A DNA stretch of 37,945 nucleotides, from positions 1 through 37,945 of the IMG/VR virus record IMGVR_UViG_3300009181_000169; one strand, written 5' to 3'. Source of the stretch: a virus. Taxonomy: Duplodnaviria > Caudoviricetes. The notes beneath the pieces were generated by a model. That model saw only the letters and a program-made list of their open reading frames with translations. It ran no database searches and was not told the DNA's origin. Below are positions 1 to 37,945 of the stretch, piece by piece. Position 1 is the first letter of the stretch, and each line of letters starts with the position of its first letter. The position numbers and the translations under genes are program-made.

Positions 1-603
1 AAACGATTCAACGAGGCCTTCATTCTCATCGAAATCAACAGTATCGGGCTTCAGGTTGCAGACATTCTCCACAATGAATTGGCCTATGAGAACCTTATCA
101 AGGTTCGAAATGCTAAAGGTAAAGCCGGGCAGCAGGTCACTCCAGGTTTCACTAAGCAGATGCAGTTTGGTCTAAAGACCTCAGTACAGACAAAGAAGAT
201 TGGTTGTGCGAACCTCAAATCTCTTATCGAGAACGACAAACTAATAGTAAATGACGAAGACACGATTATGGAACTAACTACCTTCTCAGCCAGCAAAGCT
301 TCTTTTGCGGCCGAAGAAGGTAACAATGACGACCTTGTTATGACGCTGGTGAATTTTGGCTGGCTTTCAGCACAGAAATACTTCAAAGAGAGTGTCAATT
401 CTGACATTCGCAGAACGCTACAAGAAGAACAACTGAGTATCATGGACAACGATATCGTACCTTTCGGTGCTATATCTGGCTATCAAGGATCAGCAGCGGA
501 AGAATCTGAACTGATAGATGGTGACCTCTGGGTGACCGATAGGTCTAAGTTTACCATGGAGAACATGGAATTTGAGACCCTTTCGAACAAGCACAGACTG
601 TAA
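1..603 (+). CDS. gp17: Terminase large subunit, C-terminal nuclease domain (5'-partial)
   Basis: Frame is open from base 1 (KRFNEAFILIEINSIGLQVADILHNELAYENL...). Motifs KKIGCANLKSLIE and FAAEEGNNDDLVM are typical of T4-like gp17; the gene lies directly before the tail sheath gene. Confidence 0.95.
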   Translation, partial: KRFNEAFILIEINSIGLQVADILHNELAYENLIKVRNAKGKAGQQVTPGFTKQMQFGLKTSVQTKKIGCANLKSLIENDKLIVNDEDTIMELTTFSASKASFAAEEGNNDDLVMTLVNFGWLSAQKYFKESVNSDIRRTLQEEQLSIMDNDIVPFGAISGYQGSAAEESELIDGDLWVTDRSKFTMENMEFETLSNKHRL

Positions 604-614
604 ATTGCTGTTTT

Positions 615-622
615 TCTAAATA
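615..622 (+). promoter_or_regulatory. Probable T4-type late promoter (TCTAAATA variant)
   Basis: One mismatch to TATAAATA, in the intergenic gap before gp18; SD AAGGAG follows. Confidence 0.6.
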
Positions 623-663
623 AACCAGAGAAAAGTAATCTTTTCATATAAAGGAGAAATACG

Positions 664-2343
664 ATGGCATATCAATTGTCACCAGGTGTTAATGTTTCAG
701 AAATTGACCTATCTACAATCATTCCAGCAGTAGGTTCTACTCAAGCCGGTTTCGTAGGTACGTTCAGTTGGGGGCCAGCAGATGTTATTATGAACATCTC
801 AGATGAAATTGGTCTCGCCAGCACATTCGGTACACCAACCGCAAATACTTACGAATCATTCTTTACGGCCGCTAACTTCCTTGCTTATGGTAATAGCCTA
901 AGACTTCTACGTTCTGTAGGCGCAACATCAAACAATGCGGTGTCTGCAAACAGTGGAATACAGATTAAGAATAGAGACGCTTACGAATCTACATATTTGA
1001 ATGTTAAGTCAAATGCAAACACATATGGTATGTTTGCGGCTAAGTATCCAGGTGCTCTTGGAAACAGCTTGAAGGTTGCAGTTTGTGCTACAACAGCTGG
1101 TTTTGCCACATATAACTACGCTTCTCAATATAACAGCGCACCAGGCACATCTACATATGTATCAGGCGTTAGCGGTTCAAATGATGAAATGCACATCACA
1201 GTTGTTGACGAAGACGGTGTAATTACAGGTACAGCAAATACAATTCTTGAAAAGTTTGGGTATATATCAAAAGCTTCTGATGCTAAGAATGATGACGGTT
1301 CTTCAAACTACTTTGTAAACGTACTGAATGACCAGTCTAAGTATGTGTATGCCATGAATAATAGTGACAATGCTTCTTGGGGTAATACGGCACCAAACAC
1401 AACATTCGCATCAGCAAGTTCTACATATACATCATCACTAGCTAATGGTACAGATGTTTCTCCTTCAGATGGAAACCTACAGACAGGATATGATTTCTTT
1501 AAGAATTCTGATTCAGTAGATATCTCTCTAATCTTGACAGGCAGCTCTTCAAATGTTGTTTCTAAGTATGTTGTAGATAATATTGCAGAGACTCGTAGAG
1601 ACTGTGTGGTCTTCATCTCACCTAAATCAACAGACGTTGTTAATAAGAGTGGTAGTGAAGTAACAAACATCAGCGCAACAAGAAACGGTTTCAACGCTTC
1701 TTCTTATGCCTTTATGGATAACAACTGGAAGTATCAGTTCGACAAGTACAACAATGTCTATCGTTGGGTACCTTTGAACGGTGATATTGCAGGCCTCTGT
1801 GTTCGCACAGACTTTGAGCGCGATCCTTGGTTCTCACCGGCTGGTTACAACCGTGGGCAAATCAAAAACGTCACAAAGCTTGCATGGAATCCAACAAAGA
1901 GCAATCGCGATGACCTATACAAGATTGGTGTCAACTCTGTCGTAAGTTTCCAAGGTGATGGAACAATCCTTTATGGCGATAAGACAATGCTTACGAAGCC
2001 ATCAGCTTTCGACCGCATCAATGTACGTCGTCTATTCATCGTTCTTGAGAAGGCCATTGCAAGAGCATCCAAGTATTCACTATTCGAATTCAATGATGAG
2101 TTTACCCGCGCACAGTTCATATCACTAGTACAACCATATCTTCGTGATGTACAGGGTCGTCGTGGTATCTTTGATTTCCGTGTCGTGTGTGATACTTCAA
2201 ATAATACTCCTGAAGTGATCGATAGAAATGAATTTGTAGGTGACATCTATATCAAGCCTGCAAGAAGCATCAACTTCATTCAATTGAACTTTGTTGCTGT
2301 TCGCACTGGTGTGAACTTCGAGACTATTGTTGGTCGTTTCTAA
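664..2343 (+). CDS. gp18: Tail sheath protein
   Basis: N-terminal LSPGVNVSEIDL; WFSPAGYNRGQI, FDRINVRRLF, FEFNDEFTR, IYIKPARSINFIQLNF. Confidence 0.98.
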   Translation: MAYQLSPGVNVSEIDLSTIIPAVGSTQAGFVGTFSWGPADVIMNISDEIGLASTFGTPTANTYESFFTAANFLAYGNSLRLLRSVGATSNNAVSANSGIQIKNRDAYESTYLNVKSNANTYGMFAAKYPGALGNSLKVAVCATTAGFATYNYASQYNSAPGTSTYVSGVSGSNDEMHITVVDEDGVITGTANTILEKFGYISKASDAKNDDGSSNYFVNVLNDQSKYVYAMNNSDNASWGNTAPNTTFASASSTYTSSLANGTDVSPSDGNLQTGYDFFKNSDSVDISLILTGSSSNVVSKYVVDNIAETRRDCVVFISPKSTDVVNKSGSEVTNISATRNGFNASSYAFMDNNWKYQFDKYNNVYRWVPLNGDIAGLCVRTDFERDPWFSPAGYNRGQIKNVTKLAWNPTKSNRDDLYKIGVNSVVSFQGDGTILYGDKTMLTKPSAFDRINVRRLFIVLEKAIARASKYSLFEFNDEFTRAQFISLVQPYLRDVQGRRGIFDFRVVCDTSNNTPEVIDRNEFVGDIYIKPARSINFIQLNFVAVRTGVNFETIVGRF

Positions 2344-2349
2344 TACAAA

Positions 2350-2357
2350 CATAAATA
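2350..2357 (+). promoter_or_regulatory. T4-type late promoter (CATAAATA)
   Basis: ATAAATA core in the gp18-gp19 gap, upstream of SD TAAGGAG. Confidence 0.7.
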
Positions 2358-2377
2358 GAGATAAGGAGTAATATCAA

Positions 2378-2971
2378 ATGGCTTTCAATGTCCAACAGTT
2401 TAGATCACAGCTAACAGGTGACGGCGCACGCCCAAACCTGTTTCAGTGTACACTAACTTTTCCTACACTAGCTTCTTCAGGTGGTGCAACATCACCTGGA
2501 GGCGTTCAAGATAACGTAAACCTAACCGAGAAGTTTACGTTCATGGCAAGAGCAGCACAGCTACCAGGTTCTACTGTAAATCAAATTCCAGTTAACTACT
2601 TTGGCCGTGAACTCAAGTTTTCAGGCAACAGAACTTTCCCAGAGTGGACAGTAACCATCATCAACGATGAAGACTTCCGCCTTCGTAACGCATTCGAAAA
2701 GTGGATGCACGGTTTGAACTCTCATGTAACTAATACACGAGGCGCTTCATTCCAGAACTCACTTGATTATCAGCAAGATGCTGTAGTTACTCAGTTTGGT
2801 AAGGCCGGTAACATCATCAAGCAGTATCAGCTTGTAGGTATGTTCCCAATCGACGTATCACCAATCGAACTAGATTGGGGTTCTAATGATACCATCGAAG
2901 AGTATGCAGTAACCTTCGCTTATCAGTGGTGGGAAAGCAATACGACTGAGACTTCATTCAGAAATATCTAA
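2378..2971 (+). CDS. gp19: Tail tube protein
   Basis: GARPNLF, AAQLPGS, GNRTFPEWTVTIINDEDF, IELDWGSNDTIEEYAVTFAYQWW. Confidence 0.97.
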   Translation: MAFNVQQFRSQLTGDGARPNLFQCTLTFPTLASSGGATSPGGVQDNVNLTEKFTFMARAAQLPGSTVNQIPVNYFGRELKFSGNRTFPEWTVTIINDEDFRLRNAFEKWMHGLNSHVTNTRGASFQNSLDYQQDAVVTQFGKAGNIIKQYQLVGMFPIDVSPIELDWGSNDTIEEYAVTFAYQWWESNTTETSFRNI

Positions 2972-2982
2972 CATACATAAGA

Positions 2983-3014
2983 TAGTAGGGAGGATTCTCT
3001 CCCTACTACTTTTC
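2983..3014 (+). terminator. Stem-loop, probable intrinsic terminator after gp19
   Basis: TAGTAGGGAG / CTCCCTACTA 10-bp stem followed by CTTTTT. Confidence 0.65.
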
Positions 3015-3030
3015 TCGGAGTAGTTTATTA

Positions 3031-4728
3031 ATGGCAACCTTATTTGGTTTTGAGATCAGCCGTAAAAAAAATCAAGTACAACAAGACGAGCAAAGTAAGA
3101 CATTTGCTGTACCTCAGAATGATGATGGTGCAGTTACCATTCAGTCAGGTTCCTATTATGGCACCTATGTAGACCTTGATGGTGTTGTTCGTAACGAGAT
3201 TGAACTTATCACTCGTTATCGCGAAATGTCTATGCAGCCTGAGCTTGAAACTGCTATTGATGAAATCGTCAACGAAGCTATCGTCAACGATGAAAACGGT
3301 AAAGGTGTCGAGTTAAACACTGATGATCTAAAACAACCAGAGCAAATTAAAAAGAAGATCAGAGATGAGTTTGAGTTTATTCTCAAACTTCTCGACTTTG
3401 GTAATATGGGCCATGACCTATTCCGCCGTTGGTATATCGACGGGCGATTGTTCTATCACATCGTTATCGATGATAAGAGACCGACACTTGGTATCAAAGA
3501 AGTAAGATATATCGATCCACGCAGAATCCGTAAAATTCGTGAGATTCAAAAGACCCGTGATCCAGTAAGTGGTATGGATATCATCAAGCGTCAGAATGAA
3601 TACTATCTATATAACGAACGCGGTGTTGTCGGCGCTCACTCTAACTTGGGCGCTAAGATTGCCGTTGATGCTATCGTAAATGTCAATTCAGGGCTTATGG
3701 ATGCTAAGAGAGCGATGGTTCTTTCTTACCTACATAAGGCCATCAAGCCACTCAACCAGCTAAGAATGGTTGAAGACGCAACCGTTATCTACCGTCTCTC
3801 TCGCGCACCTGAGCGCCGTGTGTTCTATGTTGACGTTGGTAATATGCCAACCATCAAAGCTGAACAGTATCTAAAAGATATCATGACCAAGTATCGCAAT
3901 AAGCTGGTTTATGACTCAAGTACAGGTGAAATCAAAGACGACCGTAAGCACCTTTCTATGCTTGAAGATTTCTGGTTGCCTCGCCGCGAAGGTTCGAAAG
4001 GTACAGAAATCACCACTCTTGCTGGCGGTATGAATCTTGGTGAACTAGAAGACGTTAAGTATTTTGAAAAGAAGCTCTACAAGTCTCTTGGTGTTCCTAC
4101 TTCAAGACTAGAATCACAGCAAGGGTTTTCACTTGGCCGTTCTACAGAAGTAACCAGAGATGAGCTAAAGTTCAATAAGTTCATTCAGAGACTTCGCAAC
4201 AAGTTCTCTATTCTATTTGATGACCTTCTTCGTGTACAGCTAGTACTCAAGCGCATTTGTACCGAAGAAGAGTGGAAAGAATTCAAAGAAGACGTATGGT
4301 ATGACTTTAAGAAAGACAACAACTTCCAAGAACTAAAAGAAGCTGAGTTGATGACTAATCGTCTCACTCTCCTTCAGGTGGTTGATCCTTATGTTGGGCG
4401 TTATTACTCGATGGAGTGGGTTCGTAAGAATGTTCTTCAGCAATCAGATGATGATATTCTTGAGATTAACGAACAGATTGCCAAAGAGCAAGCATCGGCT
4501 GCACCTACAGGGCCGGTTGATGCTATGGGCAACCCAATCGATCCTAATGCACTACCACCTACAACCGCTCAGGCCGCCGCAGCTGGTGGGCCACCTCAAA
4601 TGAACCAAATGCCTGCTGGTGCACCTCAAGCAAAACAACTAGCACCACCAGATGGTTCAGTTCCATTACAAGAAGAACAACCTCCATCTAAGTTTGAACT
4701 TCAAGAAAATGAATTGGAATTTGCATAA
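3031..4728 (+). CDS. gp20: Portal vertex protein
   Basis: FRRWYIDGR, SYLHKAIKPLNQLRMVEDA, RAPERRVFYVDVGNMP, EDFWLPRREG, TRDELKF; Pro/Gln/Ala-rich C-terminal tail. Confidence 0.98.
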   Translation: MATLFGFEISRKKNQVQQDEQSKTFAVPQNDDGAVTIQSGSYYGTYVDLDGVVRNEIELITRYREMSMQPELETAIDEIVNEAIVNDENGKGVELNTDDLKQPEQIKKKIRDEFEFILKLLDFGNMGHDLFRRWYIDGRLFYHIVIDDKRPTLGIKEVRYIDPRRIRKIREIQKTRDPVSGMDIIKRQNEYYLYNERGVVGAHSNLGAKIAVDAIVNVNSGLMDAKRAMVLSYLHKAIKPLNQLRMVEDATVIYRLSRAPERRVFYVDVGNMPTIKAEQYLKDIMTKYRNKLVYDSSTGEIKDDRKHLSMLEDFWLPRREGSKGTEITTLAGGMNLGELEDVKYFEKKLYKSLGVPTSRLESQQGFSLGRSTEVTRDELKFNKFIQRLRNKFSILFDDLLRVQLVLKRICTEEEWKEFKEDVWYDFKKDNNFQELKEAELMTNRLTLLQVVDPYVGRYYSMEWVRKNVLQQSDDDILEINEQIAKEQASAAPTGPVDAMGNPIDPNALPPTTAQAAAAGGPPQMNQMPAGAPQAKQLAPPDGSVPLQEEQPPSKFELQENELEFA

Positions 4729-5597
4729 TGTTGAAGAAGTTTAACGAGTATCTCAGTGAAGATTTAGGTGGTGCTCTAATAGAACCAACATCTGATGCGT
4801 CTGCACAGGCTAAGAAGCTTGGTTTGCAGTATGTTGGATTTGGTCGCTACGAAGATCCAAAGACACAGCAGATTACACATATCGTACAGAACGAAAGATT
4901 AGTTCCATTTAGCAAGGCTGTCAAGAGCAATACATTCAAGGCGGCCAGTAAAGATGACTACGGTACATATACTAAACAGAAGATGCCTGAAATTGAGCAG
5001 ATGCAGAACTATCTGGTCGATTACTATAAGCCAGAGAAGTTTACAGAGCAAGAACTAGCAGCGGTCGAAGACTATACGGCCGAGAGCTTCTATGATATTA
5101 ATCAGAAGCTATACTCACTACCAACTGGTATCAAGGCTAAAGAGATTCAACCAGAAACAGAATATGATACTACACCACAAGAGATTGCTAACCTAGATAC
5201 CGCACTCGATAAGATGAAGACACCGGTAGAGTTTCTGAGCTATGTTGGATTAGGCACTAAGTATGATATCACCAACTTTATTCCTGGCAAGACATTCTCA
5301 TTCAAAGGTTATCGTTCAACGACAATCAATCCTAATATTGCATTGAACTATAACAGCCGAGTCAACAAAGACCTTCAGAGAAAACAGACAGTCATGCTAC
5401 AGATTCGTATACCTAAAGGTTCAAAAGGTTTGTTTGCAGAAGACTTCTCTGCTAATCCTGGTGAGTCTGAGTTTTTGCTACCAAGAGGATCGAAGGTAAA
5501 AGTGGTTGGTGGCCCAAACAAGCTAGTTGGCAGCAATGCTTACACCGGTGATGCTGGGCTTGAAGTGCTTTACTTTGATTGTATCCTCGTTAAATAA
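4728..5597 (+). CDS. ADP-ribosyltransferase (VIP2/Alt-like, R-S-E clade) with capsid-targeting-like N-terminus
   Basis: DYT...INQKL helix, GYRSTT (S-T-S-like), LQIRIPKGSKG, GESEFLLPRG (E-x-E). N-terminus MLKKFNEYLSE; start overlaps the portal stop (TAATG). Confidence 0.85.
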   Translation: MLKKFNEYLSEDLGGALIEPTSDASAQAKKLGLQYVGFGRYEDPKTQQITHIVQNERLVPFSKAVKSNTFKAASKDDYGTYTKQKMPEIEQMQNYLVDYYKPEKFTEQELAAVEDYTAESFYDINQKLYSLPTGIKAKEIQPETEYDTTPQEIANLDTALDKMKTPVEFLSYVGLGTKYDITNFIPGKTFSFKGYRSTTINPNIALNYNSRVNKDLQRKQTVMLQIRIPKGSKGLFAEDFSANPGESEFLLPRGSKVKVVGGPNKLVGSNAYTGDAGLEVLYFDCILVK

Positions 5598-5600
5598 ATA
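5593..5600 (+). promoter_or_regulatory. T4-type late promoter (AATAAATA)
   Basis: ATAAATA core overlapping the ART stop, ahead of SD AAGGAG at about 5615-5620. Confidence 0.65.
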
Positions 5601-5627
5601 TACCTAGTCACTAAAAGGAGCAGTAAA

Positions 5628-5777
5628 ATGCAAATCCAAGAAGCTATCAAAAACATCCGCGAGAAGAAGTTAGAGCAGATGAAAGAAAACTTCAATTCGG
5701 CTATCACATCTAAGGCTGTGGAAAAGCTAGAAGAGAAGAAGATTGAAATTGCTAAGAACTACTTTGGGCAAAAGTAA
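5628..5777 (+). CDS. gp67: Small prohead core protein, gp67-like (49 aa; not in the ORF track)
   Basis: Strong SD. MQIQEAIKNIREKKLEQMKENFNSAITSKAVEKLEEKKIEIAKNYFGQK matches the gp67 pattern (...LEE.KI.IA.N.F), in the expected position after the portal gene. Confidence 0.75.
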   Translation: MQIQEAIKNIREKKLEQMKENFNSAITSKAVEKLEEKKIEIAKNYFGQK

Positions 5778-5783
5778 TAGATC

Positions 5784-8126
5784 ATGAAAAAGATTGGACG
5801 AATCAGAGAAGATTACGACATCATCACCGAAAAAGATGATTCCGATACACGCAAGCTAACATCGCTTGTTCGTGCTGGTTTGTTCGATCAAAATAAACTA
5901 CCAATGCTTAAACGTGCATTGCAAAAAGATCCATCTAAGCTAACAATGGCAGAACGTAAAGGTCTGCTTGAGCTATTGGATTCTCTTATGTCGCAAGTAC
6001 TACACTCACAATCTGTTTACTCAAAGGTCAAACAGAATGTTGGTACCGATATGAATGAGGCTGTAAAAGACCACTATGGTGTAGACCCTCGTTTTGGTAA
6101 TTCTGCGGCCGTATCTGAGCGAGATATGCCAACCATCATTATCTTGAAGCGTAAGTCTATTCGTGTATATCCTGACAATCAGAAAGTTGGCCTTTATTAT
6201 TCACAGTATCTAGACCGCTATGTTGCTATTCCTTTTGGTATGTCTAAAAAGAATGCACCATTCACAGCTATCAATGAAGAACTAGATGAAGCTGTTAATT
6301 GGCACGCAGCAGCACAAGATTACTTCAAAGATAATCCTGAAGATTCTGATAAAAAGACAAAAGAAAAACTCAACATTCATCCATCTCAATTTGAAGATGA
6401 TGAAGATAGAGCAAAGCACATCGAAAAGTTAAAGAAGTTTGTTACACAGAAAGCTGCTCAAGGTAAAATTAGATCAATTCACTATTCTGGTGTCACATCA
6501 AAATATTTGGGTGGTGATGCAGAAAAGAGAAGCTTGAAGAAAACTGCTAATAAAGAGTTCAACAAATCATCTAGCTTTATGGATTATGCAGCAGGCCATA
6601 CAGGTGTTGCAGTAGGTAATGCTGTTCGTAAGGTCGCTCATGGTTTAAGAGATAAGATTAGAGCTATTAGAAATAAGCCAGTTGGTGATGCGAAGTATGC
6701 AAATGCACCAAAGATACCTAAGATAGAAGAACCTAAGAAAGAAGTACCAGCACCTGCTCAAGAACCAAAGAAGTCAGGATTTAACATGAAGTTAAAAGAT
6801 GTTAAACCGCCTAAAGTGCAAGAACCATCACAGGCACCAAAAACTCCTGTAACTTCTACATCAGGTAAAGCAACTGCCAGTTTTGGAGGTTCTATGTCTT
6901 CTCCTATTACAGCAAGAGTTTTAGCACCAGCTCAACAAACATCAACAACTCCTAAAGTAAAGCAAACACCTTCAAAACCAGAATCTAATAAAGAAAATTT
7001 GAGACCAATTCAACAGGCTCTAAAGAAAAAATGGCGCCCGTCTAAGCGTCGTGAAGAAGTTAATATCAAAGAATCATTTAGACGAAAGGTTGCTGAAAAG
7101 CGAAAGATTGAAGAAGTATCTCTTGGAGATGTGGCAGATACGGCCGCCGACATTGCAGTACCTTTCTACAGCGCAGCTAAAAATCTAAAACAAGGTAATT
7201 ATGGTAAAGCTGCGGTTGATGCCGCTATCGATGTTGGTGCTGGTCTCGCTACACCATTTACAGCTGGTGCATCGTGGGCCGCCCGCATGGGAGCAAAAAG
7301 TGCTATTAAGGCTGGCGAAAAAATTGCCGCTCATGGTGCTGAAACTGCGGCCGCCAAGGGTATAGAAAGAGGTGCGGTTAAGGCTGGTGAAAAAGCAGGT
7401 GAGCAAGCTGTAGTAAAAGATACTGAAAAGGCTGTTGCTAAACCAGCAAGCGTTGCTTCCAAAGTTGGTGGTACACTTGCTAAAGGTGCTGGCAAAACAT
7501 TGAAGCTTGGTGGTAAAATTCTCAAAGGCGCAGCATTAATTGGTGCTGGGCTTGCAGCAGGTGCTGGTTCATCATCAGCCAACGACGATAAGAAAGAGTT
7601 ATCACCAGCTAAATTTGGTATGAACGTCAAAACAAACAAACCAGAAGCTGCTGGTACCAAGACAGGTGTTGATACAAGAACATCAAATCTATACAGAAAG
7701 TCTTTTGAAGGTTCTATGAAAGAAGAGACGGCTAAAGATGATGAAGATAAGACTAAAACTTCAACACCTCGTCGTTTTTTAAAACCGGCCGCAGCTTCTA
7801 ATAGTAAAGTTAAAATCAGCGCACCTAAACCAGCTGGTGTAACCACTGGTGTTGATGCTCGTATGCGTAAGTATGAGCGTGACTTCTACGGGCAACAAAA
7901 CGAAAGTGTAATGTCACAGATTATGACCATGGTCAATGAAGATGTGACGGAAATGCAACTAAATATAGGTGAAAACACCTTGAAGATAAATAATACAATA
8001 GCTAAGAAAGTTGTTGGTGTCTACGAGTCGCTGAACACCGAAAACAAGAAGAAGATGGAAGATATGCTCAATGAGGGTACAACCGAATCTTTCATGAAGC
8101 TCATCAATTTCGCAGTAAGGCAATAA
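5784..8126 (+). CDS. Large putative internal head/prohead-core polyprotein
   Basis: 780 aa in the head cluster, with many (I/L/M)-x-E sites (IRE, ITE, MNE, INE, LDE, IKE, IEE, MKE), a Lys/Pro-rich linker, an Ala/Gly-rich segment and a C-terminal VYESLNTENKKKMEDML domain. Confidence 0.6.
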   Translation: MKKIGRIREDYDIITEKDDSDTRKLTSLVRAGLFDQNKLPMLKRALQKDPSKLTMAERKGLLELLDSLMSQVLHSQSVYSKVKQNVGTDMNEAVKDHYGVDPRFGNSAAVSERDMPTIIILKRKSIRVYPDNQKVGLYYSQYLDRYVAIPFGMSKKNAPFTAINEELDEAVNWHAAAQDYFKDNPEDSDKKTKEKLNIHPSQFEDDEDRAKHIEKLKKFVTQKAAQGKIRSIHYSGVTSKYLGGDAEKRSLKKTANKEFNKSSSFMDYAAGHTGVAVGNAVRKVAHGLRDKIRAIRNKPVGDAKYANAPKIPKIEEPKKEVPAPAQEPKKSGFNMKLKDVKPPKVQEPSQAPKTPVTSTSGKATASFGGSMSSPITARVLAPAQQTSTTPKVKQTPSKPESNKENLRPIQQALKKKWRPSKRREEVNIKESFRRKVAEKRKIEEVSLGDVADTAADIAVPFYSAAKNLKQGNYGKAAVDAAIDVGAGLATPFTAGASWAARMGAKSAIKAGEKIAAHGAETAAAKGIERGAVKAGEKAGEQAVVKDTEKAVAKPASVASKVGGTLAKGAGKTLKLGGKILKGAALIGAGLAAGAGSSSANDDKKELSPAKFGMNVKTNKPEAAGTKTGVDTRTSNLYRKSFEGSMKEETAKDDEDKTKTSTPRRFLKPAAASNSKVKISAPKPAGVTTGVDARMRKYERDFYGQQNESVMSQIMTMVNEDVTEMQLNIGENTLKINNTIAKKVVGVYESLNTENKKKMEDMLNEGTTESFMKLINFAVRQ
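7638..7862 (+). repeat. Two imperfect peptide repeats inside the 780-aa protein
   Basis: KPEAAGTKTGVDTR (7638-7679) and PKPAGVTTGVDAR (7824-7862); DNA core GCTGGT...ACWGGTGTTGAT. Confidence 0.6.
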
Positions 8127-8129
8127 AAA

Positions 8130-9253: not shown

Positions 9254-9254
9254 G

Positions 9255-9899: not shown

Positions 9900-9903
9900 G
9901 TAT

Positions 9904-9911
9904 TATAAATA
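9904..9911 (+). promoter_or_regulatory. T4-type late promoter TATAAATA
   Basis: Exact consensus in the gp21-gp22 gap. Confidence 0.85.
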
Positions 9912-28126: not shown

Positions 28127-28127
28127 A

Positions 28128-28454: not shown

Positions 28455-28457
28455 AAT

Positions 28458-28673
28458 ATGGCCTTTAATCCTTCAGAAAGAAGAAATCGCATGAAAGAAT
28501 TGATGAGGCCTATTGACAGGCAGATCATGTTGTGCGATGATGTACAAGACTTGTTTGCCTTAGCTTCTATCATGACCGTTACTTCGAAGAACATCTTCAA
28601 GGCACAGTTAGGTAGAGAAGGTGCAATTCAAATCTTTGAAAAGATTATGGAGGATCTTGAAAATGAGCGGTGA
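28458..28673 (+). CDS. Hypothetical protein
   Basis: 71-aa ORF overlapping the gp44 start. Confidence 0.7.
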   Translation: MAFNPSERRNRMKELMRPIDRQIMLCDDVQDLFALASIMTVTSKNIFKAQLGREGAIQIFEKIMEDLENER

Positions 28674-30465: not shown

Positions 30466-30820
30466 CTTTCTAAAGATCAGAGAAACACTCTCGCGCATTG
30501 GTGTCGCATCAAAAAAAGACAGGACTCTCTACCAGTCCTGCCATATTCTGCACAAGCAGGGAAAATATTATATCCTGCACTTTAAGCAATTATTCCTACT
30601 CGATGGTAAGAAGTCAGACTTCTCAGACGATGATAAGGGTCGACTAAATACGATTGCTAACCTATTGGCTGAATGGAATCTTCTAGCACTGGTCGATCCA
30701 GCAAAGAGCGAAGACCCCGTTTCACCACTTAGCCAGATCAAGATACTGTCACACAAAGAGAAGAATGACTGGATTCTGGTGACGAAATATAACATTGGCA
30801 AGAAACGCCGAGAAGACTAA
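30416..30820 (+). CDS. regA: Translational repressor RegA
   Basis: PDDFLKIRETLSRIGVAS, LYQSCHILHKQGKYYILHFK, WILVTKYNIG. Confidence 0.97.
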   Translation: MLNLSELIEVTLPEPDDFLKIRETLSRIGVASKKDRTLYQSCHILHKQGKYYILHFKQLFLLDGKKSDFSDDDKGRLNTIANLLAEWNLLALVDPAKSEDPVSPLSQIKILSHKEKNDWILVTKYNIGKKRRED

Positions 30821-30841
30821 CCTGAACTTTGGAGCTATATT

Positions 30842-31396
30842 ATGACACAGTTGAAAATCTTCAAGACTAATCCAGAAGTGGTTCTACCTACCTTTGGCAC
30901 ACAACAGGCCGCATGTTTCGACATTGCTTTCCAAGCATATGGTAAGTATGAGTATGCTGGCTACAGTGGTTTCAATTCACCTTTCACCAGAACACTTAAA
31001 GACGGTAGAGCGGTGATAATGCCTGGTGACCGTATCATGGTACCGACCGGTCTTATCTTTGATATCCCCGAAGGCTATTCACTTCGCATTCATCCTCGCT
31101 CTGGGCTTTCGTACAAGCAAGGATTGGTGCTGGCCAATCTTGAGGCGGTAATCGATTCAGATTACTTTCAAGAGACCTTCGTATTGCTCACCAATCACTC
31201 GGAGAATCCTATCTCTATCAGCAATGGTGACCGTATCGCACAAGCTGAATTGGTACAGAGTTTGAAGTATGCCCTTGTTGAGACGACCGAAACGCCTACA
31301 CAAAAGACTGACCGTGTTGGTGGGCTTGGTTCCACTGGTGTTGAAACACCAGCTGTTGAAAAGCGCGGGCGTGGCAGACCAAAGAAGGTTGCTTAA
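30842..31396 (+). CDS. dut: Trimeric dUTPase
   Basis: AACFD, PTGL, PRSGLS, VIDSDY, GDRIAQ, RVGGLGSTG. Confidence 0.95.
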   Translation: MTQLKIFKTNPEVVLPTFGTQQAACFDIAFQAYGKYEYAGYSGFNSPFTRTLKDGRAVIMPGDRIMVPTGLIFDIPEGYSLRIHPRSGLSYKQGLVLANLEAVIDSDYFQETFVLLTNHSENPISISNGDRIAQAELVQSLKYALVETTETPTQKTDRVGGLGSTGVETPAVEKRGRGRPKKVA

Positions 31397-31749
31397 TGTC
31401 TGACACCAACTATCACTATCATAAGGTTGAGTCAAGGCCTGCACTCATTGAAGTTGAAGGTGGTATCACCATTCGTATAGATGAAAACAACAACATCAAT
31501 ATCGATGGGCATAATGATATGAACTTCAACTGTAATGGTGACTTGAACATCAATGCCAAGAAGATAAATATGGTTGGTGATGATACGGTTCTTGTGGAGT
31601 CGAAAGCGCATCTAGTGCATTTGGCTCCACGCATCGACCTGAATCCAGATGAAGATGATGACAGGTATAAGGAACATAAGCAGTTGGTAGAGAAGTTTCA
31701 AAAAGAAAAGAAGATACCAAACTCTCCTCGTTTCTGTCACGGGAGCTAA
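31396..31749 (+). CDS. Short gp5/VgrG C-terminal beta-helix-like spike protein
   Basis: Repeats such as NINIDG, NFNCNGD and LNINAK end in APRIDLN, like T4-type gp5 C-termini; followed by gp5.1-like and PAAR genes. Confidence 0.6.
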   Translation: MSDTNYHYHKVESRPALIEVEGGITIRIDENNNINIDGHNDMNFNCNGDLNINAKKINMVGDDTVLVESKAHLVHLAPRIDLNPDEDDDRYKEHKQLVEKFQKEKKIPNSPRFCHGS

Positions 31750-31752
31750 CAA

Positions 31753-32235
31753 TTGGCTGTCGAACTTTATCCAAATACACTATCTAGTCAAGTATTCAGA
31801 ACTTACTTCTCCGATGAAGTATGGGTGCAGGCTAATAGTGGTAGCTCTAGTGCGAATGCCAATGTGAGAAATGTTACCGTCACATCTAACGTGGCTTTTG
31901 GTAACGTAACGATAAATGTATCCAATCATGTTATTCGTTTTTCAGGTTCTTATACAACCGGTTATTCAGATAATGTGAAATATACTTCGTTACAATCGAA
32001 CACTCAAAACTCGTACTATTGGCTGACGCCTTCAGTTACGGCTGACATGTATACGACACCGGCCAATGTGATTGTTTATGAAGTCAATTCTGATCCATCA
32101 ACAACGATGACATTTACATATAATTTGAACATACAATATACGGGTGGAGGATCAAACGATAATGTTTCAATCACCAGAACTGTGACCCGAGACTACACAG
32201 CACCCTACTATTATATAAAGAGTTTGTATCCATGA
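31753..32235 (+). CDS. gp5.1-like hypothetical baseplate-region protein
   Basis: TTG start with SD GGGAG; 160 aa; RFSGSY, TFTYNLNIQY and ITRTV recall T4 gp5.1; synteny with PAAR. Confidence 0.55.
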   Translation: MAVELYPNTLSSQVFRTYFSDEVWVQANSGSSSANANVRNVTVTSNVAFGNVTINVSNHVIRFSGSYTTGYSDNVKYTSLQSNTQNSYYWLTPSVTADMYTTPANVIVYEVNSDPSTTMTFTYNLNIQYTGGGSNDNVSITRTVTRDYTAPYYYIKSLYP

Positions 32236-32561
32236 GTCAACCAGTAACATTTATGGGAGCAGCAGATTTTCCACATTGTAGCCCAATGGTTCGAGCTGTT
32301 GGTTCTATGGATGTTTTTGTTAACAGTAAACCTCTCAGTCGGCAATATGATGTGAATACACCACATCGTGCAAATATTGGTACTGCATGTTTTGGAGCTG
32401 CATCTCCTATCCATGTTAGTCATATTGCAATTGGTAGTCTTACGGTTTTTACAAATGCCAGAGGATCTGGTCGTATGTTAGATGCTTTGATATCAATCGG
32501 TATTCCTACAACTTGTACATGGGTGGCCGTAGGATCACCAACAGTTTTTGCCGGTGGTTGA
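32232..32561 (+). CDS. PAAR-repeat spike tip protein (gp5.4-like)
   Basis: Three repeats GSMDVFVN, GSLTVFTN, GSPTVFAG with His/Cys metal ligands. Confidence 0.88.
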   Translation: MSQPVTFMGAADFPHCSPMVRAVGSMDVFVNSKPLSRQYDVNTPHRANIGTACFGAASPIHVSHIAIGSLTVFTNARGSGRMLDALISIGIPTTCTWVAVGSPTVFAGG

Positions 32562-32588
32562 CATTTCAAACCCGGTGTGATATAAATA
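32558..32588 (+). promoter_or_regulatory. Overlapping sigma70 and T4 late promoter
   Basis: TTGACA-N17-TATAAA with TGn; the -10 is part of an exact TATAAATA (32581-32588). Confidence 0.75.
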
Positions 32589-32622
32589 GTCTGTCAGATT
32601 GAGTAATGCGTTCTGACACTAT

Positions 32623-32697
32623 AGCGGAGTGGAGAAGTAGGATCTCGTTTGGCTCATACCCAAAAGATCGTCTGTGCAATTCAGACCTCCGCAACCA
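32623..32697 (+). tRNA. tRNA-Met(CAT), initiator (fMet)-type, CCA encoded
   Basis: Cloverleaf AGCGGAG TG GAGA..TCTC G TTTGG CTCATAC CCAAA AGATC GTCTG TGCAATT CAGAC CTCCGCA A CCA. The 1:72 mismatch and A11:U24 are initiator hallmarks. Confidence 0.92.
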
Positions 32698-32759
32698 ACT
32701 CTTTGCCTTATGGGAAGAGTTCTAACCCTAACTTGCTTAAAAGGAGTTAACTACACATG
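32697..32759 (+). promoter_or_regulatory. ROSE-like RNA thermometer in the hsp20 leader
   Basis: TAACTTGCT-TAAA-AGGAGTTA pairs UUGCU with the SD, leaving a bulged G; upstream hairpin AACTCTT/AAGAGTT. Confidence 0.65.
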
Positions 32760-33245
32760 TCTATCAACAAAATCCCACACTTCGATCCTTTCACCTTCAA
32801 TATCGCCGATATGACAAAGACTGCTATTGGATTTGATGACATCTTCAAAAAGATGAATCAAATTACCGAGAGTCTTCCTAAGATTCCTACCTATCCGCCT
32901 TACAACATCCGCAAGATTGACGATACCAAGTATGTCATCGAGGTTGCTGTGGCCGGTTTCGGTAGCCAAGATATTGAGGTCGAGATTGACGAAGGCACCC
33001 TTACCATTAAGGGTAGCACAAATGCTTCCACATTCCCTGCTTCTGAATACCTGTTCAAGGGTATTGCTGATCGTGCATTCACTCGTAAGTTCTCTCTTGC
33101 TGATACCATTATCGTCAAGGATGCGGACCTTATGAATGGTATGCTAAAGGTCATGCTAGAGCGTCTGATCCCTGAGGATAAGAAGCCTAAGAAGGTCAAG
33201 ATTAATGATGGTAGCGTTTCAGAAAAACAATTTTTGAAGGACTAA
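32757..33245 (+). CDS. hsp20: Small heat shock protein (Hsp20, IbpA-like)
   Basis: IGFD, YPPYNI, IEVAVAGF, YLFKGIADRAFTRKF, NGML. Confidence 0.96.
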   Translation: MSINKIPHFDPFTFNIADMTKTAIGFDDIFKKMNQITESLPKIPTYPPYNIRKIDDTKYVIEVAVAGFGSQDIEVEIDEGTLTIKGSTNASTFPASEYLFKGIADRAFTRKFSLADTIIVKDADLMNGMLKVMLERLIPEDKKPKKVKINDGSVSEKQFLKD

Positions 33246-33246
33246 C

Positions 33247-33426
33247 ATGATCTTTCTTACAGAAGAACTCACAGAGGCCTTTCAAGGTTTCTTTGATACG
33301 TTTCGTTTGCAGCGCAAGGCTGAATATGAACTGATGAAGCTTTCGAAAGAAGAACTGGAAGACCTAGACCTACAAAGACACGAAATCTATGGTGTCGTCT
33401 ACGAGGCCACCGAGAATTATAAGTAA
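33247..33426 (+). CDS. DUF1127 (YjiS)-like small protein (59 aa; not in the ORF track)
   Basis: MIFLTEELTEAFQGFFDTFRLQRKAEYELMKLSKEELEDLDLQRHEIY matches the R...EL..LS..EL.D.(G)L.R..I pattern; SD AAGGA. Confidence 0.65.
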   Translation: MIFLTEELTEAFQGFFDTFRLQRKAEYELMKLSKEELEDLDLQRHEIYGVVYEATENYK

Positions 33427-33430
33427 GAAT

Positions 33431-33460
33431 GAGAGGGGGAGAAATCTCCCTCTTGCCTTT
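33431..33460 (+). terminator. Stem-loop, probable terminator
   Basis: GAGGGGGA-GAAA-TCTCCCTC with a GAAA loop; weak T tract. Confidence 0.55.
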
Positions 33461-33479
33461 ATGTGGAGAATACTATACT

Positions 33480-33629
33480 ATGTGGAGACTGTGGGCTAAG
33501 GCTCTAGGTGAAAAGAACGGTAAGAACAACATTGAGGCTGATAGAGTCGCTATCATCCGAACGGTCATAATTCTCAGCTATATACTAACGAACATGTTTA
33601 TTATAGCTGGCGTGATAAGGCATTGGTGA
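33480..33629 (+). CDS. Small membrane protein
   Basis: MWRLWAKALGEK...ADRVAIIRT followed by one hydrophobic helix; SD-like GGAG upstream. Confidence 0.7.
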   Translation: MWRLWAKALGEKNGKNNIEADRVAIIRTVIILSYILTNMFIIAGVIRHW

Positions 33630-34384
33630 TGAAATACAACATAGTAACAGAACCCAAGACCGTAACGGTCATTACCCCCACAATCGGATCACCTAAGGTT
33701 CTTGATGCCATTTTGAGCATCAAGAATCAAACGTATGGTCATATCGACCATCTAATTGTCGTTGATGGTCCAGAACATCAAAAAAAATTCTTGCATAACT
33801 TCGCATACGATGATGATTTGCTAAATCATGTAACTCTGACAACATCACCATACAATACAGGTAAAGTTGGTGATGGTTTCTATGGTCACCGCATCTATGC
33901 AGCCTATCCACATCTAATCAACTCTGACTATATCTTCTTCCTCGATGAAGACAACTGGTATGCACCAGATCATGTCGAAAGCCTCGTCAAGGTATTAGAG
34001 ACAAACAAGTTTGCATACTCACTCCGTCAAATCTATGATGAGAATAAGAACTATCTCTGTGATGACAACTGTGAGAGCCTTGGTAAGTGGCCTATCTACT
34101 TCACACATGGTAATGAAGAAAGCTTTCTCATCGACACATCCTCATTTGCATTTCGCCGTGAGTTTCTAATCAAGGTGTCGCAGTTCTGGCATCATGGTTG
34201 GGGCGGTGATCGCAACTTCTTCTATAACGTCAAAGACCACTGCAAGTGGGATACGAATGGTAAGCATACACTTTGTTATCGTCTTGATGGCAATCCAAAC
34301 TCAGTAACAGCCAACTTCTTTGAAAAGGGAAATGAGAGTATGGCTGTAATCTATGGTAATGAATTTCCCTGGCTAAAGGCTTGA
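33629..34384 (+). CDS. Glycosyltransferase family 2
   Basis: VTVITPT, LIVVDG, FFLDEDNW, IDTS, WGGDR. Confidence 0.9.
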   Translation: MKYNIVTEPKTVTVITPTIGSPKVLDAILSIKNQTYGHIDHLIVVDGPEHQKKFLHNFAYDDDLLNHVTLTTSPYNTGKVGDGFYGHRIYAAYPHLINSDYIFFLDEDNWYAPDHVESLVKVLETNKFAYSLRQIYDENKNYLCDDNCESLGKWPIYFTHGNEESFLIDTSSFAFRREFLIKVSQFWHHGWGGDRNFFYNVKDHCKWDTNGKHTLCYRLDGNPNSVTANFFEKGNESMAVIYGNEFPWLKA

Positions 34385-34386
34385 TT

Positions 34387-35109
34387 ATGGATCTTGGTAA
34401 ACTAATTTACTCAATCAAAGAAGCATCAAACGAACAACTTCGCAATGATGAGTTGTTTCAGTTCATTGGCTTCTGTTTACAACATGCACATGAGAGTGAA
34501 GCACAGAGCTATCAAGACGTATGGGCTTTGTGGGAAACCAGAAACAACTATACTATGAAGTACTTTGTTGAGTTTGGTGCTACTGATGGTAAGACTAGTA
34601 GCAACAGCTATCTACTTGAACAGAAATACGGATGGTCAGGTATTCTTGCTGAACCTAATCCAATCTGGCATGAAGAACTGCATAAGAACCGTTCTTGTAA
34701 TATCACAGATATGTGTGTGTTCAGTGTAAGTGGTGAGACGCTAGACTTTCTTATGACAGATGCGGCCGACTTGGCTACCATCAAGGGATTTGGTCGTGAT
34801 GATGAATTCAAGTCCGAGCGTGAGAAAGCTAAGACAATCTCAGTTAAAACAATCTCACTCTATGATATGCTTGATGAACACATGGCACCAGAGGTTATCG
34901 ACTTCATGTCTGTTGATACCGAAGGTAGCGAATATGGTATTCTCAATGCGTTCTTTCAGAAGAATAATAGGTATGAAGTAAGATGTATCAGCGTTGAACA
35001 TAACTTTACCATGCGTGACAAGTTACATGAGCTTATGACTGCTAATGGATACAAGCGGAAGTTTATGGAGATTTCGCGCTGGGACGATTTTTTCGTGAAG
35101 GAGAATTGA
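34387..35109 (+). CDS. FkbM-family methyltransferase
   Basis: FVEFGATDG..SNS, GILAEPNP, IDFMSVDTEGSE, ISVEHN. Confidence 0.9.
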   Translation: MDLGKLIYSIKEASNEQLRNDELFQFIGFCLQHAHESEAQSYQDVWALWETRNNYTMKYFVEFGATDGKTSSNSYLLEQKYGWSGILAEPNPIWHEELHKNRSCNITDMCVFSVSGETLDFLMTDAADLATIKGFGRDDEFKSEREKAKTISVKTISLYDMLDEHMAPEVIDFMSVDTEGSEYGILNAFFQKNNRYEVRCISVEHNFTMRDKLHELMTANGYKRKFMEISRWDDFFVKEN

Positions 35110-35111
35110 TA

Positions 35112-35990
35112 ATGACTAAGGATCTGGTAATCGGTGGTGCATCTAACTATGACTGGGATCAGTTGAAGTTTTGGGTCAACTCTATCAAGCGCAGTGGCTT
35201 CGAAGGTGATATTGCTATCGTCGGCACTAATATGAAGAAGGCCACTATAGACAAGCTGACGAGTGAGGGTATCATTCTCAGCCTCTATGGTCGATTGAAT
35301 GCAGACGGTGATATGGTTGCACCAAATAACAATGCTCCGCATGTTGAGCGTTTCTTCTATCTCTGGAACTTCCTTGAGACAACCAAAGAAGAGTACAACA
35401 ACGTAATCACCACAGATGTTCGTGATGCAGTCTTTCAGAAGAATCCATCTGATTGGTTTGTAGATAGGTTTCACTTTCTCTATGCCTCGTCTGAAGGTAT
35501 GAGATATAAGAATGAACCTTGGGGTAATAAGAATCTGCTTGATACTTTTGGTCCATACTTTCACAACATTCTCAAAGAGAACCTCATCTATAATGTCGGC
35601 GTCTTGGCTGGTGAATTCAACACCATCAAAGGGCTTCTCTCTTTCATCTTTCATCTCAGTGTGAATCGACCTATTCAGATTGTCGATCAGGCCGTCTTTA
35701 ACTTCATCATCTCATCAGCGCCTTTCAAGTTTGATACCGACTTTATGACCAATGAAGATGGTTGGGCTATTCAGCTTGGCACAACTCTTGGTGCCGTTCA
35801 ATCTGGTAAAGGTGATCTCGGTCAAATTTTCATGAATGATCCAACTACATATAAAACACTTTATGAAGATGTTCAGCCACTCATTGAAGATGGTGTTGTA
35901 AAGACTCCTGCTGGTGAGCCATACTTTATTGTCCATCAGTACGACCGTGTTGATGGTTTGAAAGAACAGATTGAAAGGATTTACGCATGA
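35112..35990 (+). CDS. GT-A fold glycosyltransferase-like protein
   Basis: ERF, TTDVRDAVFQ..P, YNVGVLAG, DQAVFN, IVHQYDR. Confidence 0.75.
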   Translation: MTKDLVIGGASNYDWDQLKFWVNSIKRSGFEGDIAIVGTNMKKATIDKLTSEGIILSLYGRLNADGDMVAPNNNAPHVERFFYLWNFLETTKEEYNNVITTDVRDAVFQKNPSDWFVDRFHFLYASSEGMRYKNEPWGNKNLLDTFGPYFHNILKENLIYNVGVLAGEFNTIKGLLSFIFHLSVNRPIQIVDQAVFNFIISSAPFKFDTDFMTNEDGWAIQLGTTLGAVQSGKGDLGQIFMNDPTTYKTLYEDVQPLIEDGVVKTPAGEPYFIVHQYDRVDGLKEQIERIYA

Positions 35991-36526
35991 ACCCCGAATA
36001 TTTTGATATTGAGAATCTGAAGATTTTCGGAATGTGGCCTCACCAGAACTTTATCTCAAGAGGTATTGTTCCATACATCAAGCGAATCAGAAAAGATAAG
36101 GTCTATGTAGCTGTTATCGGTGATCTCAAGGGTGAATCGATTGTGGATATGCTTGAGACTACTGGTGATAAGATCGAAAAAGTTTATGTCATCAACAAGT
36201 ATGAGAGTGATGATGCCGATTTGATTAAGGCCGTCTTTGCTAAGAACACCAAGAACCTAAAAGGTAAGTTGGTGATGAAGAATGATATCGAAAGCTTGAA
36301 GAGCAAAGAAAGTTTGCCAGATGTTGTCTGTGTGAATGATATGACTTGCACTGTTGAGAATCTTATGCTATCATATGACATTACTCCAAGCGGCGGAATC
36401 TTTTGCGGTAATGGGCATGAGACAGTAAAGGTCAAGACTGCTCTTACCGAGTTTCGCAGGCAGAGTAAGATTGGAACACCTATTCAGGTATCCAATAGGG
36501 CAATTTGGTTCTGGACTAAGAGGTAA
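35987..36526 (+). CDS. Divergent class I SAM-methyltransferase-like protein
   Basis: VAVIGDLKGES and ITPSGGIFCGNG echo EIG..G.S and LKPGG...GHD, but key residues differ. Confidence 0.45.
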   Translation: MNPEYFDIENLKIFGMWPHQNFISRGIVPYIKRIRKDKVYVAVIGDLKGESIVDMLETTGDKIEKVYVINKYESDDADLIKAVFAKNTKNLKGKLVMKNDIESLKSKESLPDVVCVNDMTCTVENLMLSYDITPSGGIFCGNGHETVKVKTALTEFRRQSKIGTPIQVSNRAIWFWTKR

Positions 36527-36528
36527 TC

Positions 36529-37566
36529 ATGAAGACAGCACTTGTATTAGGAGCCGGTGGATTTATCGGCAATCACATGGTCAAGCGTCTCAAGGCTGAA
36601 GGCTATTGGGTTCGTGGCGTTGACTTGAAGTATCCGGAGTATGATAAGTCTGAGGCCGATCACTTTGTATTGCGTGACTTGCGTGATGCGAGAGAAGTGA
36701 GAGAGTTGATTGGTTTTGCCGGCTCTTGTCGTAATCCACATCAGATATGGGCGATGCAGTTCGATAAGCCGTTTGATGAAATCTATCAGTTTGCTGCTGA
36801 TATGGGTGGTGCTGGCTATATTTTCACGGGTGAACATGATGCAGATGTTATGCACAACTCTGCAAGCATTAACTTGAATGTGCTTGATGCTGTGAAAGAT
36901 ATCAATCATCGACACAAGACGAATATCACAAAGGTCTTTTACTCGTCATCTGCTTGCATGTATCCTGAACATAATCAGTTAGATCCGGAGAATCCAAACT
37001 GTGAAGAGTCGAGTGCATACCCTGCAAATCCAGATAGTGAATATGGATGGGAGAAGCTATTCAGTGAACGCCTATATCTTGCCTATAATCGCAATTACAA
37101 TATTCCTGTACGCATCGCTCGGTTCCATAACATCTATGGTCCCTTAGGTACATGGGATGGTGGTAAAGAAAAAGCACCTGCTGCTATGTGCCGAAAAGTA
37201 ATTCAGAGCAACGGTGTTGTTGATATCTGGGGTGATGGTGAACAGACACGTTCATTCCTCTACATCGATGATTGCATTGATGCGGTTCGAATGCACATGG
37301 AGTCAGACTTCATGGGCCCTGTTAACATTGGCTCTGAAGAGATGGTAACTATCAATGAGCTTGTTGGTCTCGTTTCTTTCATTGCGCTTAAAGACCCGAA
37401 GGTCAATCATATACCTGGCCCCACGGGCGTCCGCGGGCGTAACTCTGATAATCGTCTCATCGAAGAGAAGCTTGGATGGAAACCTAAGTACACACTCTTC
37501 AAAGGTTTGATTCCAACTTATGAATGGATCGAAGATCAAGTTGTCAAGAAAGAATCAATGATATGA
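36529..37566 (+). CDS. NAD-dependent epimerase, GDP-mannose 3,5-epimerase-like
   Basis: GAGGFIG, AADMGGAGYI, SSSACMYP, YGWEK, RFHNIYGP, GGKEKAPAAMCRK, GVRGRNSDN. Confidence 0.9.
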   Translation: MKTALVLGAGGFIGNHMVKRLKAEGYWVRGVDLKYPEYDKSEADHFVLRDLRDAREVRELIGFAGSCRNPHQIWAMQFDKPFDEIYQFAADMGGAGYIFTGEHDADVMHNSASINLNVLDAVKDINHRHKTNITKVFYSSSACMYPEHNQLDPENPNCEESSAYPANPDSEYGWEKLFSERLYLAYNRNYNIPVRIARFHNIYGPLGTWDGGKEKAPAAMCRKVIQSNGVVDIWGDGEQTRSFLYIDDCIDAVRMHMESDFMGPVNIGSEEMVTINELVGLVSFIALKDPKVNHIPGPTGVRGRNSDNRLIEEKLGWKPKYTLFKGLIPTYEWIEDQVVKKESMI

Positions 37567-37945
37567 AGTTATTGAGATTGGGTTTCACCGATACGTTCGG
37601 TGGTATTGAAAACTTCTTCACCAAGGTTTTGTCTGAGCGTTATGATATTGTTCGTGACGATAACAATCCAGACTATCTTATCTTTGGTGACAAAAACTTC
37701 GGTGGTGATAATATCAACTATGATGCGAAGAACTGTATCAAAGTATTCTACACGGGTGAAAATGCTCGACCGTGGGATTATCGTTGTCATCACTCAATCA
37801 CGTTTGACCACTTTGAGTTTGACGGGCAGAACTATCGGTTACCTCTATATGTCATCTACGACTATGATAACCACTTTAGAGATGTACCTAATACAAGCAC
37901 TATTAATAGAAGCGCAGCCGACCTTCTTCAACCAAGTGACTTCTG
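37563..37945 (+). CDS. GT10 alpha-1,3/4-fucosyltransferase-like protein (3'-partial; not in the ORF track)
   Basis: Translated by hand: ...NPDYLIFG...IKVFYTGENARP...SITFD...YRLPLY, matching the Helicobacter-type FucT N-terminal domain. Confidence 0.85.
   Translation, partial: MKLLRLGFTDTFGGIENFFTKVLSERYDIVRDDNNPDYLIFGDKNFGGDNINYDAKNCIKVFYTGENARPWDYRCHHSITFDHFEFDGQNYRLPLYVIYDYDNHFRDVPNTSTINRSAADLLQPSDF

Follow-up and report, generated by a model that had tools for sequence, protein, structure and literature searches.

The 37,945-base window examined here (the whole stretch of DNA analysed, viral record IMGVR_UViG_3300009181_000169) is a fragment, 23% complete, of a T4-like myophage whose genome is near 165 kb, and the subject of this report is the palindrome GGCC, which is both over-represented and evenly spaced along it. 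Our results suggest that selection very probably acts on the length of the gap between successive GGCC sites, with a ceiling near 650-800 bp. The window holds 109 sites against about 69 expected, 105 within genes (70 in the register NNG-GCC, 22 in GGC-C and 13 in NGG-CC) and 4 outside. The gaps average 346 bp and the longest, from 867 to 1792, is 925 bp. Their coefficient of variation (CV) is 0.57, compared with 0.98 under random placement, for which the longest gap would be about 1740 bp (p 0.0005, the floor of 2000 draws). Record G001, which is identical to the window and adds 14.3 kb including gp43, UvsX and gp41, provides an independent repeat, with a CV of 0.60 (p 0.0015) and a longest gap of 873 bp. 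GGCC is the most even strand-merged 4-mer with at least 15 sites, the next most even having a CV of 0.88. Dividing the sites by their flanks gave no class clearly more even than the plain word, which is exactly GGCC; GGC alone (CV 0.97) and GCC alone (CV 0.89) are far less even.

Protein constraint is not the source of this evenness, because neither codon shuffles nor draws of synonymous sites ever reached the observed CV. The 500 codon shuffles gave on average 68.6 sites and a CV of 1.05, with a minimum CV of 0.74 and a shortest maximum gap of 1653 bp, and the lowest CV among 5000 draws from the 1014 synonymously possible sites was 0.81. The gap distribution is flat to about 650 bp and then ends, and the lag-1 correlation between gaps is 0.00. 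Occupancy of the possible sites depends on the gap: 5-8% are occupied if the gap stays below 700 bp, 35% at 700-900 bp and 56% at 900-1100 bp, occupancy above 925 bp being by construction. We infer selection on the gap because mutation bias cannot space a word evenly. A toy model of random gain and loss with a penalty on gaps longer than 650-800 bp reproduces the number of sites, the CV and the longest gap (at neutral spacings of 600-900 bp it yields 123-156 sites with a CV of 0.51-0.66, the longest gap being 700-860 bp, set against observed values of 144 sites, 0.58 and 925 bp), which demonstrates sufficiency only.

The comparison set comprised siblings that are about 77-96% identical at the nucleotide level and relatives whose proteins are near 79% identical. 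Between the window and the sibling locus L081, 44 GGCC sites are shared, 9 are found only in the window and 8 only in the sibling, and density holds. Of 59 sites present only in a sibling, 33 have a site found only in the window no more than 200 bp away, versus 24.6 expected (p 0.012), and polarised losses number 0 versus 4.4 expected (p 0.013), a count that applies solely where the flanks are unchanged. Even spacing is seen again in siblings and relatives, with CVs of 0.55 in L081, 0.69 in G008, 0.66 in L083, 0.59 in G022 and 0.65 in L118/L119. Among 31 close loci, 19 carry at least 1.4 GGCC per kb, 13 of these with a CV below 0.8 and 9 at p <0.05. The other 12 are sparse, and 11 of them avoid the word (observed/expected, O/E, <0.7), to the point of near absence in L217 (1 site in 11.8 kb), L223 (4 in 12.9 kb) and L091 (4 in 15.3 kb). 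The GGCC-even and GGCC-avoiding phages are interspersed on the gp23 and gp43 trees, and some pairs are sisters or near neighbours, such as L231 and L232, or L304 within the gp23 group of the window phage. When 25 non-redundant loci of the closest band were pooled (20 with enough sites), the CV of GGCC was 0.82 versus 0.96, and no control word fell as far below its null; the most distant band also gave 0.85 (z -2.2) and a middle band 1.28.

Beyond these relatives, none of 12 cultured T4-like phages convincingly shows even GGCC. Pelagiphage Mosig was set aside as a case, its CV of 0.61 over 60 kb becoming 0.91 over 140 kb. GGCC was significantly even in none of 15 further records of 40-160 kb (G004, G005, G025-G029, G031-G034, G036, G040, G041 and G048), two of which have too few sites, and no other word was prominent there in a comparable way. 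Searches of open-licence main texts turned up no account of a phage with evenly spaced GGCC. Selected, spaced short words are already known on bacterial chromosomes. Applied to any phage, the gap test offers an inexpensive way to screen for spaced signals. The restriction landscapes of the window phage and its close relatives differ: the hexamer palindromes TGATCA, AGATCT, AACGTT, CTGCAG and ATGCAT each occur 0 times in the window versus 10-15 expected, and GTAC and GAATTC are avoided by the close relatives and not by the window phage.

The first-pass annotation of this DNA did not mention even spacing, the strongest property of GGCC. It proposed a single frame-independent motif, GG[G/C]C, from the use of GGG glycine codons before C and of other rare codons before GC or GCC. 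Every coordinate that it quoted reads as it stated, and its junction tallies stand. GGG precedes C 53 times and another base 14 times (44 genes, 12,019 codons), that is, in 53 of 121 Gly codons before C versus 14 of 625 other Gly codons (Fisher p 3e-34). ACG, GCG, CCG and TCG do recur before GCC, in 7/12, 6/16, 3/4 and 3/7 cases, compared with 3/43, 2/50, 4/30 and 1/38 before other Ala codons. Its three examples of AGG or CGG before GC are correctly placed, and all are GGCC sites. The codon-shuffle check that it recommended raised GGGC (81 vs 51.9, z 5.3) and GGCC (105 vs 64.4, z 6.3), but GCCC, also expected to be enriched, was depleted (29 vs 45.3, z -3.0), and AAGA outscored both raised words (z 13.6).

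Instead of one motif there are two unrelated signals. Over the window and its 14-kb extension the excess of GGGC is confined to a single frame (3.89x for GGG-C, against 0.97x and 0.60x in the remaining frames), and that of GGCC to two (0.86x, 1.86x and 2.00x), its third frame still being high relative to other NNC-C junctions. A null that preserves each codon plus the next base accounts fully for GGGC (81 vs 80.8) and leaves GGCC as the top 4-mer (105 vs 59.5, z 9.6). The two signals are uncorrelated (rho -0.03) across the 114 of 178 phage clusters that have at least 25 Gly-C sites each. Combined words were rejected: GGSC has a CV of 0.89 and GSCC of 0.74, and GGGC does not occupy the gaps between GGCC sites (union CV 0.79 vs 0.80 under the null). 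The idea that the sites are selected, in the way that the target of a modification or a site-specific protein would be, is supported for GGCC by its even spacing, compensatory turnover and gap ceiling. It is unsupported for GGGC, where changes are faster, not slower, 19 of 83 T/G sites differing between siblings versus 55 of 2231 elsewhere.

Short palindromes are normally purged by phages. That a common restriction site recurs below a maximum distance in some lineages and is removed from sister lineages implies that some machine must read the spacing, and the word, the ceiling (about 0.7-0.9 kb) and the paired even and avoiding relatives make the question directly testable, whether the reader is a self-mark defence, a re-specified primase or a repair signal. 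Selection would penalise long GGCC-free stretches, and the reader would probably be a host system that accepts DNA as self only if there is a modified GGCC no more than a few hundred bases away. The sites may acquire a methyl or phosphorothioate mark while the phage replicates in its previous host cell, and unmarked stretches would then be destroyed or blocked by a nuclease or translocase that scans the DNA; extra GGCC sites would help, the reverse of type II restriction, and relatives would purge the word in hosts that simply cut it. To this reading of GGCC as a host-written self mark, methylation or phosphorothioate (PT), read by a scanning nuclease or translocase, we give a probability of roughly 0.45. 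Its specific form, in which a host immune system destroys any DNA that does not show it a marked GGCC every ~700 bp, and phage evolution has produced the matching spacing, is put forward more tentatively. If it is true, phage gap statistics would reveal the motif and the reach of an undiscovered proximity-sensing defence in uncultured hosts.

Three considerations favour host modification-sensing. GGCC is purely palindromic, the form usual for methyltransferase and Dnd sites, and is itself a standard motif of both; the trait switches between close relatives in the manner of host-dependent traits; and DndFGH is a case in which unmarked DNA can be attacked and marked phage spared. GGCC is reported as one of three double-strand PT motifs (PMC12193691), the word in the window phage being exactly the GGCC of the set GGCC, GATC and GAAC/GTTC. 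In the DndABCDE-DndFGH system of the G(PS)GCC type, unmarked DNA is nicked, and PT-modified phage is described as protected from DndFGH in vivo (PMC12707154). The likeness has a limit in that the mark of Dnd hosts is partial and sparse, whereas the window phage shows a sharp sub-kilobase ceiling. Because PT fits a sharp ceiling poorly, a methyl mark that is fully written is no less likely than PT. We found no report in the open-licence literature of phage selection for spaced Dnd sites.

Several points weigh against this reading. Host PT is described as partial, about one per 1-4 kb with gaps of up to 10 kb (PMC6435447). The records of the window lineage, about 60 kb of ~165 kb and each 13-23% complete, gave no m5C, N6/N4, D12, Vsr, QueC or phrog_799 match and none to PF00145, PF01555 or PF02086, and contain no evident writer or reader of GGCC. 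G003, a complete 167-kb genome with even GGCC, encodes a type II restriction-modification pair and a second methyltransferase, and any mark there may be phage-made. Longer relatives are less even (CV 0.80 and a longest gap of 2642 bp in G003; 0.88, not significant, in G002), some dense relatives lack evenness (L092, CV 0.96; L093, 1.33), and G006 and G007, which have short segments in common with the window lineage, are without even GGCC. The sites themselves turn over, the relatives are not independent of one another, and the gp43 tree is a quick one.

Modification by the phage was considered through several genes. The 7-deazaguanine pathway of DpdA, as in phage CAjan with its GA and GGC motifs, resembles the present case in its GGC-containing motif, and its modification blocks HaeIII (PMC7544227). 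It differs in that GGC is not evenly spaced in the window phage, that queC matched only one of 38 records (KVP40) and none of the lineage fragments or the complete G003, dpdA itself not having been searched, and that KVP40, which has QueC, avoids GGCC (O/E 0.10). The family phrog_799 is present in both the even G055 and the avoiding G056. An N6/N4 methyltransferase of family PF01555 (E 6e-32) lies at L292:14947-15822 in G011, a member of a second clade positive for the GGG-C signature described below.

Of the candidates named by the first-pass annotation, the DruA-like and ParB-like genes were rejected as causes and the glycosyltransferases are unsupported. The DruA-like gene occurs in GGCC-even and GGCC-avoiding loci alike, and strong GGG-C is confined to its same-species loci. 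The ParB-like open reading frame (ORF) is missing from the relative L107, whose record G022 keeps even GGCC (CV 0.59, p 0.003). The glycosyltransferases belong to a nucleotide-sugar cluster, likely of cell-surface glycan genes, that differs between siblings, and no link between them and either signal was found. A 149-aa ORF at 29594-30043 was also rejected as the cause. It is absent from the sibling G008, sits between gp44 and gp62, has no Pfam match, and contains a D...EVK pattern that we take to resemble a PD-(D/E)XK nuclease; the equivalent slot in G003 holds a type II restriction endonuclease-methyltransferase pair.

An unlikely alternative to the self mark is that GGCC is the priming site of the gp61 primase of this clade, since initiation of Okazaki fragments would call for sites on either strand at intervals of a few hundred bases. 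The zinc domain of T4 gp61 is reported to recognise 5'-GTT or 5'-GCT (PMC10359460, PMC4488733), and in that case as well a T4-like genome needs its word to recur regularly along the two strands. A GGCC template would presumably yield a pppGC primer, as the GCT site does, a fully read motif suits the sharp ceiling, and the zinc domain of G003 has residues unseen in the other aligned primases. However, the T4 word is an asymmetric trinucleotide and the window word a palindrome, which a 4-mer would be by chance only 1 time in 16, and the trinucleotides GGC and GCC, as noted, lack comparable evenness. Close relatives nearly free of GGCC would demand repeated specificity switches in a core enzyme. 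G003 is the only clearly even genome with a primase on record, and gp61 of the window phage is in no contig examined.

Somewhat less probable again is that methylation at GGCC directs repair to one strand, the part played by GATC for Dam/MutH, and that the word is kept within repair range. The E. coli system, which also works from a palindromic 4-mer, is reported to reach about 1 kb from GATC (PMC5014478), near the ceiling seen here. In Vibrio phage KVP40 (L353-L356) GATC shows some evenness (CV 0.82 over 80 kb, longest gap 1093 bp), possibly a parallel case, though weak given about 650 words tested and borderline after multiple testing. The word itself is different, however, and the window phage depletes GATC (O/E 0.68). 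In three of four sibling pairs, codons farther from GGCC show no rise in third-position divergence, a comparison of limited power in that all distances are below 500 bp. No Vsr match exceeded the cut-off, the lineage has an active transversion hot spot, and the benefit of such a signal would be second-order.

Quite improbable, in our estimate, is a structural role for GGCC as the binding site of some protein, from the phage or the host, that packs, ejects, nicks or organises the DNA regularly. A dimeric binder would suit a palindrome, and the cyanobacterial HIP1 word (GCGATCGC) is described as an over-represented, conserved and periodic palindrome, selected within and between genes with non-random spacing, for which a structural role has been proposed (PMC5861425). 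GGCC likewise is an over-represented palindrome under selection. HIP1, however, is a chromosomal octamer with periods of 10-90 kb, whereas the phage word is a 4-mer under a sub-kilobase ceiling that is avoided in sisters; in the window CGATCG occurs 0 times versus 6.6 expected, and the gaps, flat from 0 to 650 bp and uncorrelated, indicate a ceiling and no period. Comparison of the 197 ORFs of G003 with even and non-even genomes gave core or unnamed T4-like genes and no evident binder, and the patchy distribution of the trait speaks against a virion function. A neutral origin, in which context-dependent mutation spares C from C-to-T change after GG wherever restriction does not purge the word, is very improbable, the spacing tests having refuted it for the most part: C/(C+T) at GGC[C] (70/132) is the same as in undepleted contexts and the lineage does show strong context effects, but mutation gives random spacing, as in GGGC and other 4-mers, and not a CV of 0.57, gap-dependent filling and replacement by nearby sites.

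The GGGC excess is a recent, context-specific T-to-G substitution bias at GGTC, separate from GGCC. At 40 GGG-C sites with orthologues, relatives carry GGT-C in 97 of 192 aligned codons and GGG-C in 7. The G:T ratio before C is about 16-fold higher in the window phage than in relatives (79:51 vs 62:658), and before A and G it is identical in the two. Polarised T-to-G changes occur at 4 of 36 GGT-C sites versus 10 of 1916 elsewhere (p 9e-5), about 20-fold, and on the stem the direction from GGT-C to GGG-C prevails by 17 to 2. Only the third position responds (113/269 vs 62/945), positions 1 and 4 and the GCC-C mirror not being raised, and on the other strand the mirror comparison of HGC-CC with HGT-CC gives 20:0. 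The signature recurs in T4-like lineages unrelated to one another, being found in 8 of the 114 clusters, 2 of them of the window lineage and several of them avoiding GGCC, and in none of the 12 cultured T4-like phages; one positive contig, L306, is 152 kb long.

With some confidence we attribute this bias to a hot spot of polymerase misalignment or misinsertion whose products became fixed at synonymous glycine positions, and misalignment or an effect of the deoxynucleotide (dNTP) pool (PMC3045583) is likely to lie behind the change from GGTC to GGGC. In the bacterial GnT (AC3+) hot spot, T following Gs changes to G, most often with a 3' C, and a misalignment model has been proposed for it (Cherry, bioRxiv 10.1101/2022.10.28.514265; PMC12344412; PMC13250602). 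The GGGC signal likewise is a T-to-G change after Gs that is strongest with a 3' C. The fit to the bacterial case is imperfect in several respects. The bacterial hot spot is described as needing at least 3 Gs and as growing stronger with run length, whereas the window phage acts at two and G-preceded sites are not raised (2/32), a count on which the purging of GGGG in all frames of the window (O/E 0.23) bears. The +2 preference is A in the window phage and C or G in Salmonella, AGG-GC is raised without its mirror, and the signature is lineage-specific.

A modified or damaged adenine in GACC, or translational selection on codon context, is a less probable source of GGGC than polymerase slippage. 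In favour of this reading, the A of GACC is lost to G as well (AGG-CC 5/11 vs 10/75), methylated bases are reported as hot spots (PMC13250602), and in G006 the signal tracks the coding strand in both gene orientations. On the other hand, within one context different start bases tend towards the same product, as the T-to-C mirror of 20:0 illustrates, and GGTC/GACC is not avoided at other positions. The effect is also weaker in four abundant structural genes (5/24 vs 74/141), and there is a weak non-synonymous echo, Ala versus Ser after NGG (odds ratio 1.58, p 0.036; TGG alone not significant). Avoidance of GGTC/GACC was rejected as the driver of GGGC on the same undepleted positions, and a change in gp43 proofreading was rejected because the clade L233-L244 has the signature together with FDIPY. 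Among the polymerases seen, the ExoII-adjacent FDIPY of gp43 (L182:4039-6588, minus strand) reads FDVTY or FDITY in the window lineage only, and FDIVY or FDVVY in a small clade. GGGC thus represents a lineage-switchable mutational signature in phages, and a caution that codon-junction enrichments can be mutation hot spots and not motifs.

Coordinates of the two signals and of the candidate genes in the window
Feature	Coordinates	Strand	Remarks
GGCC palindrome array (n=109)	15..37420	.	Position list and spacing tests
In-frame GGG-C glycine junctions (n=53; first 46, last 37824)	46..37827	+	Mostly from GGT-C; random spacing
DruA/DUF4338-like ORF	19236..20528	+	Pfam PF14236, E 1e-21; 78 related loci
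381-aa ORF, weak ParB_N-like resemblance, this strain only	20608..21753	+	
Glycosyltransferase, FkbM methyltransferase, epimerase and FucT cluster	33629..37945	+	

The window is 42% GC with all genes on the plus strand. Its structural content comprises the end of the terminase gene, tail sheath and tube, portal and head genes, and it also encodes UvsY/UvsW, gp55, gp47/46, the DruA-like protein, the clamp and its loader, RegA, a dUTPase, Hsp20 and the sugar-enzyme cluster. The best runs containing the window phage are freshwater metagenomes, and a search for the host through Hsp20 across genome contigs gave one distant match only. On the coding strand GGA, AGGA and GAGG are strongly avoided in the window (AGGA 52 vs 167). 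G006 and G007 each carry a permuted tmRNA with the tag ANDNAPISYALAA (L200:11068-11466 and L205:16319-16708); permuted tmRNA is a form known from Alphaproteobacteria. G006 also has about 30 tRNA calls, among them CTA and TCA anticodons called Pyl and SeC. The window phage encodes a tRNA-Gly(TCC) (L182:8312-8386), which would decode GGA and GGG, and the relative G002 has both tRNA-Gly(TCC) and tRNA-Gly(GCC). Directly 3' of the portal gene, at 4728-5597, lies an ORF with an Alt-like ADP-ribosyltransferase domain that is kept in close relatives.

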